Shown here piece after piece: positions 24,001-33,000 of a DNA stretch of 64,000 nt. The position numbers are program-made. Within the stretch, counting starts at the first letter, position 1, and every line of letters begins with the position of its first letter. This DNA is from Marivirga lumbricoides (lineage in GTDB: Bacteria; Bacteroidota; Bacteroidia; Cytophagales; Cyclobacteriaceae): assembly GCF_014636295.1 (NCBI RefSeq), contig NZ_BMEC01000004.1, forward strand, positions 83,926-147,925. Direction: 5' to 3'.

Positions 24001-27000
24001 GAAATATTTAAGATTGAAGAACATTTAGGTTTTAATGGAGAAGCAAAAAGCTTAAGTGCCAGAAGAGACTTTGAATACTGCAGAGCAATTGCCATGAAGT
24101 ATTTAAATGCCCCGTATCTGTGGGGCGGAAAATCTCTATTTGGAATTGATTGCTCCGGGTTTACCCAAATGGTATTTAAAATTTGTGGCTATAATTTATT
24201 AAGGGATGCGGCAGAGCAGGTAACGCAGGGAAAAGGAGTAGCTTCTTTAGCGGAATCACGTCCCGGTGACCTCGCTTTTTTCAGAAATGAAGATAAAAAA
24301 GTAGTTCACGTAGGCATTTTACTTGAAAATCAGACAATTATTCATGCTTCTGGCAAAGTAAAGGTGGATTTAATTGATGAAAATGGTATATTCAATGTCG
24401 AACAAAAACAGTATACACATTATTTAACAGATATAAAGCGGTTTTTAGCATGAAATAAGTGGTGAGGAAAGAAAAAGATGCTGTTGTTACTATCAAAAAA
24501 TAATAAGCAATAGCAGAGATCTGAGGGTAAAGAATATTTTTAGTCATTAAGGGTACCAGAATTTCATGCGGCTTTAGCGGTTTTTAAGTTGTCACTCAAA
24601 AGTAAGTAGGTACACATGAAAATAGGTAATAAGCGCGCCCTGGTTCTTAATCAAGATTTTTCACCCATTACTGTATGCAATATACAAAAAGCATTTTTGT
24701 TGGTGTATCTCAAAAAAGCGGAGTTAGTTGTAACAGATGAAATGCTTAAACTGAGAAGTATCAATAAAGCTTATCCTTTTCCCTCTGTGATCCGATTGAT
24801 AAGTTATGTAAGTATGCCTTACAAAGGTGTAATGCTAACCAGACAGAATATATTTAAAAGAGATGCCCATACATGCCAGTATTGTGGTGTTAGTAAAGAC
24901 CTCACTTTAGATCATCTTATTCCTCGGTCCAAAGGCGGAAAGTCATCCTGGAATAATTTGGTTACAGCATGCAAAAAGTGTAATGCCCGAAAAGGAGATG
25001 CCAAACCTGAGGAGAGCGGAATGAAACTCATGCGAATGCCTTTTAAACCTAGTTATGTGATGTTTATCAGGGATTTTTCGGGTACCATTAGTGATGGCTG
25101 GCTGCCATTTCTTAAAACAAAATCAATGCCTGTGTTAAAAGAGGGTTAGTAAGAATCCTAATTAGTAATTTACTTCACTTCTTGAGTACTGATTGTGGCT
25201 ATGCTTATTTTATCATTCTTAATTAAACTATGATTTTAATGCTGCGTAAGGGTAAATTAAAGAAATAGAATTACTCAAAACAGCTTAATTATACTACGCA
25301 ATAACATGTTTAAATTGTACACTAAAATTATTCAAATCTTTTATATGCTTCTTCTTTTTGTGGGTTTTTCTGCTTGTAATTCAGCTGAAAACAGGAATGA
25401 AGAAAATGATGAAGTGCAGGATGCCGATAAAACCGAAATGATGGAAGATGAGCATCAGATGGATCCCAGCGAAGGTGAAATGATGGAGGAAGAAGATGAT
25501 TCCTTACAAACTAATGATGAAGTAGGAATTATGTAAAGAAGCAGGTATGGCATTAGGTTGGGTGTTTGGAGTTCTTTTAATAATCATAGTGGTCGCTTCA
25601 ATTTTGGGAAGAGGCAGATCACGTTAGTTTTTAACTAGGTGTTTGCTATGGGTCATGAAACTAAGGAGAAAAATGGCAAGACAGTTGGTGAGTTGGGATA
25701 AGGGATAATGTGGTTCTTTTTAGCGACTATTATAGAGTTGCTTTACTTCCTCGGTCAAATTCATATGAATTTCTATCATTTACTGGCAGGAATAATTGGT
25801 TTTTATATCACTTAATAAATTTTATCGAGGAGGTGAAATGTTAAAAGATATAAGAAAATCCAACCCCCGGAGAGCCACAAACAGAAGTACTTTTAATTGA
25901 CTTCATCTCTCCTTGGGAAACTCCAAAGTAAAACTTGTGTTTAATCAGGCCTGCGATAATATACCACCTGCCTGAATAACCAATAATATCAGTTTTTTCG
26001 TTTGCTTAAAGCTTTCTCAATATTTTCCAGCCCCTCAACAAATAAAGTCATCTGACCTATGATTTGTGACATCCTATCAGAATCTCCTAAACCTTTGATT
26101 TTGTTATTCTTTGTAAAAGTCTCTTTTATTGTACTCCAACGCCTGGCTTTTTCTTCATCTAAATTATCCATGAGTTCTGCTAATTTTAAGAGGTTAGCCT
26201 CAGCGTCCGAGGTGAGTGTCTGTGATTCATTTTGATAATGATCCAGCAATAATTGAAGTACCTCTTTCTCTTTCATGATGGGAACTACCTGACTCATCAA
26301 TTTATTCATATCCCTGTAGGATCCTTGAAGCTTAAAAGGTGGCTCTGTTCTGTAGTCATCGCTCATGGCAGCAGAACGGATATATTCACCATTTACTTTA
26401 AGTACTACATCCCTGACATGCATAATTTTCTGCAGTACTTTAATGCAGTCCTGTATTTCCTGAGGAGATAGATTTCCTTCTAAAGCAGGTAGTGATTGCT
26501 CATTATTATCAATATAACTGACCAACTTGTATAGGTTTTCCATACCATACTGAGTGATGGATTTGAGATAATCATTAGAGGTTAACCCATTCTCTATCAA
26601 GCTTAGTCTAAATAAATCAGCTTTGTTGCTTGCTGTGTCACCTAAATTGTAAATATCTGCTCTATTGGAAAGCATATCCGGAATCTGGAATTTATCACCA
26701 CTTTCAGTGTAGGGGTTTCCTGCCATCACCACACAGAATCTTTTACCTCTGAAGTCATAAGTTTTAGCTTCTCCATTAAAAACCCCCTCTATTTTTCGTT
26801 GCCCATCTGCAAGAGAGATGAATTTTTGTAAAAACTCAGGGTTACAATGCTGGATGTCATCCAGGTAAAGCATTACATTGTCACTCATCTCAAAAGCAAG
26901 GTTTAACTTTTGTAACTCTTGTTTAGTGGCTGCATTTTTTGCTTCTCCAGGGTCAACAGAGGTTATCTCATGGCCTATCGATGGGCCATTTATTTTCATA

Positions 27001-30000: not shown

Positions 30001-33000
30001 ACTTTTTTTACTCTGTTGTTGAAAATAAAATACCTGTCATCTTCCAGGTACGGTCTTATTTTTAGTAATACCAGATTGCCCAGATCGCAGTAAAAGAAGC
30101 TTGCATCATCAAGGGATTGGTCTCTTTGCTCTACCTCTTCACTATAAATACCTTGCCCATCTTCGGTATTGTCTTCTATCTTTATGGTTAAGGTGCCGTT
30201 TACTGTTTCTACAAAAACCTTATCGGCTATGGAAATATGTGGGTTCTTTCCAGTTCTTTGCATATCGCGCGTAGCCTTCTTCCATTGAAACTCATGTTGC
30301 TCTGGAAATTTCACTTCAGCGGCACTTCTGGAATCAACATAGGTTAGCTTTTCATCTTCAATCAGCCATTTGTAAGCTTTTATATCAGTCGGGCTATCAG
30401 AAAGCTGAAATACCATATACAGGAAGGTGCCACTTTTATAGAATCTCGAAAACCGTGTATTTCTATAGAATTTATAAAGGTTTTGTAGCTCATCAGAGAA
30501 AGTAGCATCCTGAATAATATCTAATGAAAGAGGATGAAACTCATTATTCCTGAATTGAAATACACTGAATACATCATTGATTTCTAGTGCGGTTTTCAGG
30601 CCTAACCTGACATTATAACCAAAGAGACAGATGCTGCCGATTGATATAATATCTCTGGCAAGGCAATTATGTTCTGTCTTAATACGAACATTGGATAAAA
30701 GTTTAAATTCTACCGCACCAAATATTTGCTGACGTTCTTCATTTAGCTTCTTTAGCCTATCCAGCAAGCTTTCTTTTTGTTCCTGTAAGCGACCTTGAAT
30801 GATTTCGTATGTTCCTTTTTCAATAGAATTATCCATAGTAAGAGTAGTGTGTTTGAGAACACCTTTGTGTTTAGCCCTGGTCAGTTTTGGAAATCAACAG
30901 TTTAGTAAAAGACGTCTACGGATTAATTTGTAGACGTCTTTGATATAGTATATGAAAGCTCAAGCTCTCTTGAGCTCCGCATTCAATTATTTCAACTTCT
31001 TTTGTTCTACGCTAATGCCACTTACAAATTTGCTGATGTTAGACAAAAAGTCTTTATCCTCATCACTGGCTTTCATTTGAACTCTTGCAATTAATGTAGC
31101 AATAGAGAGGTTTTTGATATCCTCAGAAGTAATTCCGTACTTAATAGCCATGTTTTTAACTTTCTCAATCAAGTCAGGGCTATTTCCATTCTCACCATTG
31201 CCACCCAAAAGGGCATCTTTAAAATGAGTGATGGTTTGGGAGTTATCTACTAATTTATCAATACCTTTTCCGTTTGATACCTGTCTTATAAGGTTGTCAA
31301 AGAAAGTGTTGTCTCCACCCACTATATCTATTTTAGCGGTTTTGAAGGCTTCAGCAAGCACTGTTGCCTGGGCATCAGCTATATCTTTCTGGATATGAAT
31401 TCCTGCAAGCTCCACTTCTTTCTCTTTCTGAAGTTTCAGTCTGAACTCTTCATGTTCTTTGCCGGCATCATTTAGCTGTTTCATAGCACCTGCTTTTTCC
31501 TGAATACCTTTCGCTTCTGCAATTGCTTTCTCCTGGATAACATTGGCTTCGGCCAGACCTTCTTTTCTTTTCGCTTCTGCTATTTTTTCTATTATGATGG
31601 CATCAACCATTCCCTGTCTTTCGCTTGCATCAGCCTTGGCATGCATTACCTGAGCCTCAGACATTCCAATAGTAGCTTCTTCCTTAGCTTTAGCATCGGC
31701 AATTATTTTACGAGCTTCAGCTTCTTTATCTGCTGCATCTTTTTTAGCGCCTGCTTCAATAATCACTTTCTGTGCATCAAATTTAGCTGATTTTTCTCTT
31801 GCTTCTGCCGCTTTTACGTCCTCAATCAGGCCTTGTTCAGCTTCGAGGTTTGCTTTTATTAAAGCTACATCTTTAGATCTGTTGGCTTCTTTTAGTGCTA
31901 CTACATCTTTTATTTTTTCCTGTTCCTCTACTACAGTTTTCTCCATCACCACTCTTTCGCGAATAGCATCCTGAATGTTTTTCTTCTCTATTTCAACTGC
32001 TTTCTCCTTTTCAATTTGAGCTAAAGCCACAATTCTTTCTCTTTCAGTAGCTTCAATGTCACGATCTTTTTGAACTCTCTCTGTTTCAACTGCCTCTGCT
32101 CTTTCTTTATTTTTAGCCGCAATAATTACCTGACGTAATTTATTTTCCATCTGAATCTCAAGCTGTTCATCAGTCCTGATCCTAACTTCTTCAGATTTCA
32201 ATCTTTCCTGCGAACTTACTTTGTCAATTTCTGCCTGCTCTCTTGCTACAATGGTTTCGATTTCTCTTCGCTGAGCTTCTTCTTTTTCTTTCAGTTGTTT
32301 TTCAAGCTCAAGAATAGCTTCTCTTGCCTCAACATCTTGTTTCTTAATTGTTTTTTGTTCATCTCTTCGGATAAGGTTGGACTTAATCTTTTGCGCAGCA
32401 GTTAATTCAGTAATCTTTTTGATACCCTCAGCATCTAGAATATTGTCAGAGTCAAGATTTTCTACTTTGGTCTGCTCCAGGTAATCTATAGCACAGTCAT
32501 CTAAAACATACCCGTTCAAGTCGGTACCTATGATGTCAATGATTTCATTCCTGAACTCTCTTCTGGCCTCGTATAACTCTATAAATTCGAATTTTTTACC
32601 TACACTTTTAAGAGCTTCAGAAAACTTAGCTTCGAAAAGGCTTTCCAACGTTTCATGGTCCGAAGCCCTTGCGCAGCCAATTGTCTGAGCCACATTTACA
32701 ATATCCTGAACGGATTTGTTTACTCTTACAAAGAAAGCCACTTTTATGTCAGCACGCATATTATCTTTGCAAATAAGGCCATCTTTGGTCATTCTTGATA
32801 TTTCAAGCTTTTTAACAGAAATATCCATAATTTCTTCCTTATGAAGAATAGGAATTACCATACCTGCATTGAAGAAGATTTTTACTCCTCCCTGTCCGGT
32901 TCTGACCAGCACCCGGCCCTGGCTAACTTTTTTATACATGGATATAAGCCAGAATGTCAATCCAAGAAGTACAATTACAGAAATTGTAGCTATTACGTAA

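Follow-up and report, generated by a model that had tools for sequence, protein, structure and literature searches.

A giant DUF3686 AAA+ protein as the candidate ATPase of a flotillin and PspA membrane module in Marivirga lumbricoides

Operons that join a CesT/Tir protein and PspA to a YqiJ/YuaF protein, a Band-7/flotillin protein and a "beta-propeller + coiled-coil + AAA-ATPase" protein were described as a class by Ravi et al. 2024 (mSystems; preprint 2020; PMC11237479), who proposed a role in sub-membrane dynamics and found abbreviated operons without PspA to be more widespread. An operon of this kind lies in the 64,000-nucleotide stretch of the Marivirga lumbricoides genome considered here (assembly GCF_014636295.1, contig NZ_BMEC01000004.1, positions 83,926 to 147,925 of the forward strand; hereafter the window), where it ends in a gene for a protein of 1,615 amino acids, the giant. 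The window operon is identical to the published class in gene order, orientation, domain architectures and the presence of a divergent cHTH gene, labeled "cHTH+Protease" in the exemplar of that study (Dokdonia donghaensis ANH61663.1, PMC11237479). The Dokdonia giants share 52% identity with the window protein. The window operon is another member of the class, with nothing substantive to set it apart, and both the operon and the architecture are already published. The published account comes without an AAA+ clade, a structure or an experiment, whereas the present analysis places the predicted fold of the ATPase near MoxR/AAA_5 and divides the "coiled coil" into predicted helical bundles followed by two globular domains.

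Parts of the system recur elsewhere. The Escherichia coli proteins YqiJ and YqiK are homologs of the products of the two genes upstream of the giant gene, but the giant ATPase is absent downstream of yqiK in E. coli K-12. Flotillins linked to giants are also about 120 residues longer than E. coli YqiK and carry a conserved C-terminal domain. In Pseudomonas aeruginosa, the six genes of bacABCDEF (PA3732-PA3727) are co-transcribed, and BacB-F increase 6-13-fold in a bacA mutant (PMC10948618). This "biofilm-associated cluster" encodes the YjfI/CesT-like BacA, the PspA-like BacB, the short NfeD protein PA14_16160, the SPFH protein PaFlo3 (PA14_16180) and two further proteins. It differs from the window operon in its CesT-like protein, which belongs to the DUF2170/YjfI family rather than to CesT_Tir_1, in its proposed sigma-54 dependence and in the presence of a sixth gene. 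Outside these operons, Vps4 with ESCRT-III and FtsH with HflK/C are cases in which an AAA+ ring works on or within a membrane-bound ESCRT-III or SPFH polymer, and members of both polymer families are encoded beside the giant. Vps4 serves ESCRT-III in archaea and eukaryotes.

The operon and its divergent neighbor consist of the following genes, in window coordinates:

25989-30836, minus strand: whole gene of the DUF3686 / DUF7902 / AAA+ giant, an intact open reading frame of 1,615 amino acids (Pfam)
30987-33014, minus strand: YqiK-type flotillin, 675 amino acids (HHalign against E. coli YqiK, probability 100%, E = 5.8e-40)
33040-33651, minus strand: YqiJ/YuaF-like (short NfeD-type) membrane protein, 203 amino acids (HHalign against E. 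coli YqiJ, probability 95.5%, E = 1.6e-8)
33730-34422, minus strand: PspA/IM30 (ESCRT-III superfamily), 230 amino acids (PF04012, E = 8e-39)
34435-34824, minus strand: CesT/Tir-like chaperone-fold protein, 129 amino acids, first gene of the operon (PF22550, CesT_Tir_1, E = 3e-51)
34961-35608, plus strand: Cro/C1-type helix-turn-helix (HTH) regulator, 215 amino acids, divergent (HTH_3, E = 9e-12)

The genes for CesT, PspA, the YqiJ-like protein, flotillin and the giant follow one another on the same strand with gaps of 12, 78, 25 and 150 nucleotides. Pfam and PDB sequence searches with the 675- and 203-residue neighbors gave no recognition, and their identity came from profile comparison with YqiK and YqiJ. 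In the flotillin, one N-terminal transmembrane anchor is followed by an SPFH domain, a long helical stretch rich in charge and a C-terminal domain that is conserved; the YqiJ-like protein has about 3 transmembrane segments. No transmembrane segment was found in the giant (no hydrophobic stretch with KD19 >= 1.6), which is predicted from its sequence to be a soluble, cytoplasmic protein. A soluble giant with membrane-anchored partners and short intergenic gaps is a topology that fits a membrane module. The flotillins linked to giants form a distinct YqiK subfamily of about 650-720 residues, whose 675-residue member in the window escapes Pfam even at E <= 10. The extra C-terminal domain of this subfamily, about 120 residues long, is conserved from Bacteroidota to Streptomyces and could plausibly be the docking site for the giant.

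The locus is best explained by taking the giant as the ATPase subunit of a membrane module composed of a YqiJ-like protein, a YqiK-type flotillin and the DUF3686 AAA+ protein itself, extended in Bacteroidota by a CesT-like chaperone and PspA and adjoined by the divergent HTH regulator. The conservation of the neighborhood was assessed in 80 loci from species-representative genomes of Bacteroidota, Planctomycetota, Verrucomicrobiota, Desulfobacterota, Kiritimatiellota and Omnitrophota, whose open reading frames were searched with the neighbors from the window, and counts were taken only from loci with enough upstream sequence. Whether homologs neighbor flotillin and PspA genes had been put forward as a check in the initial annotation of this locus, made from the sequence alone. 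Flotillin lies directly upstream of the giant on the same strand in 65/68 loci, and PspA is present in 32/65. A YqiJ-like gene is present in 58/65 loci. CesT is found in 31/65 loci and, like PspA, is essentially confined to Bacteroidota; a divergent HTH regulator lies within 600 bp of the CesT gene in 30 of the 31 loci that have it.

The triad of YqiJ-like protein, flotillin (about 680 residues) and giant extends further. It is found in Symmachiella (Planctomycetota), in Streptomyces (Actinomycetota), whose flotillin aligns with the profile over its full length (E = 3e-140), in a metagenome-assembled genome labeled Porticoccaceae (Gammaproteobacteria) and, as judged from protein size only, in Deinococcus. 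The YqiJ-like partner of Streptomyces ferrugineus (locus L083, 5380-5769) is reduced to 129 amino acids, keeping the membrane domain but lacking the C-terminal soluble (NfeD/OB-like) domain. On plasmid pQBR103 of Pseudomonas fluorescens SBW25 (locus L085, NC_009444.1, 84437-97641), genes for YjfI, PspA and an SPFH protein precede a giant of 1,748 amino acids that is named "DNA repair ATPase" and is 39% identical to the window protein. Here, YjfI-PspA, a polyamine module (DUF2491, DUF350, DUF1190 and glutathionylspermidine synthase) and the YqiJ-like/SPFH/giant triad form one co-oriented string, which merges two operon classes listed apart by Ravi et al. Fusion proteins were also considered. 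In P0353, a metagenomic protein of 557 amino acids, a C-terminal flotillin segment (47% identity, flotillin residues 392-606) is joined to giant residues 52-262. Such a join was seen once and could stem from faulty assembly or gene calling; this Rosetta-stone candidate and a second one, P0262, were set aside as too fragmentary or too prone to artefact to count.

By its sequence, the giant is assigned to the DUF3686 "DNA repair ATPase" family, with PF12458, PF25472 and a single C-terminal AAA+ module. PF12458 (DUF3686) matches residues 24-460 (E = 4e-185; 616 bits against a cut-off of 25) and is covered over positions 2-448 of its 448, while PF25472 (DUF7902) matches residues 581-665 (81.6 bits against a cut-off of 26). 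The only AAA match lies at residues 1254-1375, where PF00004 scores 33.6 bits (cut-off 21.2) and AAA_5 (PF07728) 28.2 bits (cut-off 22); the Pfam scan gave no match to AAA_3. Homologs with the same domain set number more than 4,391 proteins at E <= 1e-10 in the first homolog search. The closest named one is from Marivirga harenae (80% identity), and sources that name these homologs mostly call them "DNA repair ATPase". Searched exhaustively, the DUF3686 region yielded 667 clusters at 50% identity. Since the domain is N-terminal in every one of them and the full-length proteins have roughly 1,500-2,000 residues (1,504-2,036 amino acids among full-length cluster representatives), DUF3686 is confined to a single architecture. 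Many giants outside Bacteroidota carry C-terminal extensions, to a total of up to about 2,036 amino acids, that the window protein lacks. These extensions are low-complexity tails, some of them ankyrin-like (locus L053) or TPR-like (loci L058 and L064) by eye, and the extension of giant P0146 has precomputed Pfam matches to HEAT repeats.

The name of the family does not fit this setting. The initial annotation had likened the giant to DUF3686 + AAA_5 "putative DNA repair ATPase" proteins of no demonstrated function, with which the Pfam and homolog searches agree. A function in DNA repair is suggested by the database names themselves (PF12458 "ATPase involved in DNA repair"; NCBI "DNA repair ATPase") and by a weak similarity to RuvB (E = 0.003), but the latter is limited to 45 residues at the P-loop, Pfam and structure searches of the giant detected neither a nuclease or helicase nor a DNA-binding domain, and the conserved neighbors are all membrane proteins. 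A full-text literature search for "DUF3686" returned no paper. A DNA repair ATPase is accordingly a very improbable reading, and the name appears to be an unsupported legacy label and a misnomer. Most likely, the giant acts on membrane scaffolds and not on DNA.

The ATPase occupies the C-terminal end of the protein. Two overlapping AlphaFold2 models cover residues 1-1190 (mean predicted local distance difference test (pLDDT) score 81.4) and 1180-1615 (pLDDT 76.7); their alignments hold 47 rows, from Bacteroidota to Kiritimatiellota and Planctomycetota, taken from a homolog search seeded with a Kiritimatiellota relative. The elements of the AAA+ module are:

26637-27104, minus strand: AAA+ alpha/beta core, residues 1245-1400
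27039-27065, minus strand: Walker A SPPGYGKTT, residues 1258-1266 (re-translated; invariant in 47 sequences)
26850-26870, minus strand: Walker B LYLDDIQ, residues 1323-1329 (re-translated; an invariant Asp-Asp replaces the usual Asp-Glu)
26754-26795, minus strand: predicted pre-sensor-1 beta-hairpin, residues 1348-1361 (AlphaFold2 strands at model residues 169-174 and 177-182; translation checked)
26649-26732, minus strand: sensor-1 strand with N1374 and IPDMLxNRAD block, residues 1369-1396, VVMAGNPYTESGDKFQIPDMLSNRADIY (re-translated)
25992-26636, minus strand: lid and C-terminal helical extension, residues 1401-1615 (AlphaFold2; long helix 1458-1490)
26313-26327, minus strand: QGSYR, residues 1504-1508, candidate sensor-2 motif (invariant)

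In the model of residues 1180-1615, the strands follow the canonical AAA+ order, and Walker A (GYGKTT, 1261-1266), Walker B (LYLDD, 1323-1327) and N1374 occur in AAA+ order. AlphaFold2 predicts the beta-hairpin 1348-1361 (pLDDT about 70-80) ahead of the sensor-1 strand, past the helix that follows Walker B, whereas a conserved 18-residue segment between beta2 and alpha2 (1284-1301) is modeled as a loop without a hairpin. The long predicted helix 1458-1490 precedes the invariant QGSYR, the candidate sensor-2 motif, and R1392 is a candidate arginine finger. The Walker A, Walker B and sensor motifs that the initial annotation had picked out are all in place, and so is the ATPase in the last quarter of the protein (Walker A starts at 78% of its length). 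In 66 full-length cluster representatives, the MAGNPYTESG..F.IPDMLxNRAD block and QGSYR are nearly invariant, and the nucleotide-binding motifs of the giant are almost invariant across nine phyla. This invariance persists even at 27-30% identity of the N-terminal domain, which argues for a functional and strongly constrained nucleotide site.

The affinities of the module are mixed. NorQ and CbbQ are the closest structural matches of the ATPase model, and modules of MoxR, dynein or midasin are its nearest relatives by fold, with a margin of 2-3 Z units for the MoxR placement and a predicted model as the query. In sequence comparisons, the family profile aligns with the p97 family among PDB sequences (E = 1e-6) over the stretch from the P-loop to beta2 only; p97, Rix7 and FtsH align to residues 1254-1292 only, and HHalign gives FtsH a probability of 90% over 39 columns and RavA 13% over 83 columns. 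The classical AAA clade (Vps4, p97, FtsH) was nevertheless rejected in spite of the PF00004 match and of a P-loop to beta2 region of the GPPGTGKT...INGPE type: the predicted fold includes a hairpin, the best fold match lies outside the clade, and the module does not show the clade's full set of marks, which also counts a second region of homology with paired arginine fingers. The pre-sensor-1 hairpin is reportedly absent from classical AAA proteins. An SMC/Rad50 ABC-type ATPase, which the initial annotation had named as the contrary outcome, was rejected as well, as neither an ABC signature nor a head split around an antiparallel coiled coil is found in the giant.

MoxR systems are defined by a VWA/MIDAS partner and a small stand-alone ATPase. 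No VWA/MIDAS domain was found in the giant or any conserved neighbor, in contrast to E. coli, where ravA adjoins viaA. Members of the MoxR family (NorQ, CbbQ, RavA) are stand-alone proteins of about 250-500 residues with DE in Walker B, whereas the giant has 1,615 amino acids, about 1,240 residues of N-terminal domains and DD in Walker B. Because the Z margin is small, the sequence comparisons favor classical AAA, and both the VWA partner and the stand-alone format are absent, the module is described as MoxR/AAA_5-like in its predicted fold but as a lineage of its own. The assignment to an AAA_5/MoxR/dynein-like clade made at first thus finds support in the AAA_5 match, which passes its threshold but scores below PF00004, and in the predicted fold and hairpin, while the RavA probability, the missing partner and the format speak against full membership.

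The same evidence bears on the proposal that the giant is a maturation chaperone in the manner of NorQ, CbbQ and RavA, which would insert a cofactor into or activate a membrane enzyme, with flotillin as a platform that gathers clients rather than as the substrate. The general view of flotillins as scaffolds on which client proteins are concentrated suits this proposal, as do the NorQ and CbbQ matches and the AAA_5 score. However, besides the missing VWA/MIDAS partner and the weak RavA comparison, no conserved gene for a client enzyme lies nearby, and the minimal module consists of YqiJ, flotillin and the giant only. This makes a maturation chaperone unlikely, if less so than the other alternatives to a role on membrane scaffolds.

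Outside the ATPase, the models suggest the following domains:

30720-30833, minus strand: N-terminal long helix, residues 2-39 (AlphaFold2 model mc9e691c51aed)
29652-30704, minus strand: beta-propeller domain, residues 45-395, core of DUF3686 (AlphaFold2 and Foldseek)
28338-29603, minus strand: segmented helical region, residues 412-833, including DUF7902 (581-665) (AlphaFold2)
28137-28319, minus strand: small beta domain, residues ~840-900 (AlphaFold2 strands 840-878)
27447-28127, minus strand: compact all-alpha domain, residues 904-1130 (AlphaFold2 pLDDT about 90, helices of 10-23 residues)
27120-27410, minus strand: beta/alpha linker and helices preceding the ATPase, residues 1143-1239 (AlphaFold2 models)

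The propeller is predicted to have 6-7 blades, with strands over residues 45-395 at a pLDDT of about 85-92, in line with the globular, beta-rich first ~400 residues of the initial annotation. The helical region 412-833 (about 420 residues) is modeled at lower confidence as at least 10 helices of 10-51 residues and matches only generic 3- and 4-helix bundles, so that it looks like stacked helical bundles rather than one continuous coiled coil. In the small beta domain, G844, F848, H869 and T873 are invariant across phyla and G872 nearly so. The all-alpha domain starts with a conserved block of K945, G946, D949 and D951, in which H948 is invariant in narrower alignments only; its second half falls within the least conserved stretch of the giant (residues 1001-1200). 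FVRNxLI and NxAKQxG are invariant in the linker region.

The "enormous coiled-coil stalk" envisaged at first is overstated, because the helical part spans about 420 residues, is segmented and is separated from the ATPase by some 350 residues of globular domains. Of the ~600 heptad-rich, charged residues placed ahead of the ATPase, the long helices of 412-833 and a crude heptad score that peaks only at about 550-650 remain, while residues 840-1190 are predicted to be globular. Charge is not specific to the helical region, as charged residues make up 24-33% of nearly all of the giant and 21% of residues 1201-1300. These features also bear on the idea that the giant is an ATP-regulated tether or mechanical element, comparable to dynein or midasin, in which the helices would act as a lever or spacer from flotillin microdomains to another structure and no polymer would be disassembled. 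Dynein and midasin have six AAA+ modules per chain whereas the giant has one, its helices come in segments that resemble short bundles and not an antiparallel stalk, Foldseek matches to dynein have a TM-score <= 0.11, and no conserved second partner is encoded nearby. Such a tether is improbable.

A role on membrane scaffolds is the most economical model, because it accounts for the protein-interaction domains, the constrained AAA+ site of a ring-forming lineage, the near-obligate linkage to flotillin and the recruitment of PspA in some phyla. On balance, we slightly favor the view that the giant is an ATP-driven remodeler or recycler of flotillin/PspA sub-membrane scaffolds during envelope stress. 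The AAA+ modules would form a ring like those of NorQ, CbbQ and other AAA+ proteins, which the propeller and the helical domains may dock on the cytoplasmic face of a flotillin cage and/or PspA polymers. ATP hydrolysis would then remodel, disassemble or recycle these scaffolds during envelope stress. This role would be analogous to that of Vps4 with ESCRT-III or of FtsH inside HflK/C cages, without homology to either.

Several observations weigh against remodeling of flotillin and PspA scaffolds by the giant. That the giant touches flotillin or PspA is deduced solely from the order of the genes, and no flotillin gene lies near the giant in loci L038, L058 and L060 despite ample flanking sequence. 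About half of the loci lack PspA and CesT, which excludes PspA as a substrate common to all. The Asp-Asp in Walker B in place of Asp-Glu could make hydrolysis slow or regulatory, and the MoxR-like placement comes from a predicted model while sequence comparisons prefer classical AAA over a short stretch. The literature search brought up no work on the ATPase itself by biochemistry, structure determination or genetics. In P. aeruginosa, a paFlo3 mutant has only a mild phenotype, a biofilm defect (PMC13086221), and the identification of BacE (PA3728) as a DUF3686 protein was inferred from Ravi et al. with the pQBR103 locus as a proxy.

Data from P. aeruginosa also enter into a further alternative, in which the giant would belong to an anti-phage or abortive-infection system that responds to disturbance of the membrane upon infection. 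Every phage-infected P. aeruginosa sample shows induction of PA3728-PA3732 (PMC12041424), as would be expected of any Psp-type envelope-stress response. The family is accessory, with megaplasmid copies in Pseudomonas, Deinococcus, Streptomyces and Hymenobacter, and in the window an HNH endonuclease gene adjoins the giant. However, this gene is a neighbor of the giant in 0/80 loci, the genes flanking the operon are housekeeping genes (TsaD, SmpB, TamB, photolyase), and PADLOC returned nothing significant for the giant and the four proteins encoded with it (best match mad8, E = 0.0019, P-loop only). An anti-phage function is therefore rather doubtful, on a par with the tether.

The surroundings of the operon in the window contain several other elements. 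The HNH, NlpC/P60, SmpB and sigma-54 two-component genes that flank it are not conserved neighbors in the 80 loci. The HNH endonuclease is a stand-alone protein of 177 amino acids (24616-25149, plus strand), convergent with the giant, and its domain resembles those of IscB/Cas9 (NCBIfam guided_IscB, E = 5e-17, HNH region only) and of PtuB/PDC-M01B defense nucleases (PADLOC). The 840-nucleotide gap between the HNH gene and the stop codon of the giant (25150-25988) holds no open reading frame of at least 80 amino acids and no Rfam match. It does contain an open reading frame of 76 amino acids (25306-25536, plus strand), which shows a lipoprotein-like signal (…GFSAC) and ends in a strongly acidic tail, as well as a hydrophobic one of 26 amino acids. 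On the other side, the HTH regulator is closely followed by genes for a histidine kinase and an NtrC-type sigma-54 activator (35618-36976 and 37225-38622, both minus strand). The pair is suggestive given the proposed sigma-54 promoter of bacA, but it stands beside the operon in only 0-2 of the 80 loci, and no sigma-54 (-24/-12) promoter was seen by eye upstream of the CesT gene. Further away, a TamB-family protein of 1,536 amino acids (16938-21548, minus strand; PF04357, E = 5e-52), unrelated to the giant, adjoins a photolyase gene (15579-16874, minus strand). A class A RNase P RNA at 12349-12777 (minus strand; RF00010, 181.8 bits) is the sole Rfam match in the window.

For this window, the analysis mainly corrects the annotation and refines what had already been described computationally; it is not a discovery. 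What is added is a placement of the ATPase by fold, a more detailed domain map, a quantified linkage across nine phyla and evidence against the "DNA repair" name. With 667 clusters at 50% identity, the DUF3686 family is large; it is also ancient, has a near-invariant ATP site and is nearly always tied to one flotillin subfamily. To our knowledge, no dedicated ATPase for bacterial flotillins or PspA has been described. It is conceivable, and we put it forward more tentatively than scaffold remodeling as such, that the giant supplies the energy so far missing from the picture of bacterial flotillins, as a MoxR-lineage ring, unrelated by descent to Vps4 and FtsH, that would dock by its propeller and helical scaffold on YqiK-type cages, and on PspA/ESCRT-III polymers where these occur, and assemble, open or recycle them with ATP. 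If true, it would be a third, independent AAA+ motor that couples to an SPFH/ESCRT-III membrane scaffold, present in at least nine bacterial phyla. The DUF3686 family offers a concrete, testable handle by which the function of bacterial flotillins and PspA could come within direct reach of experiment.

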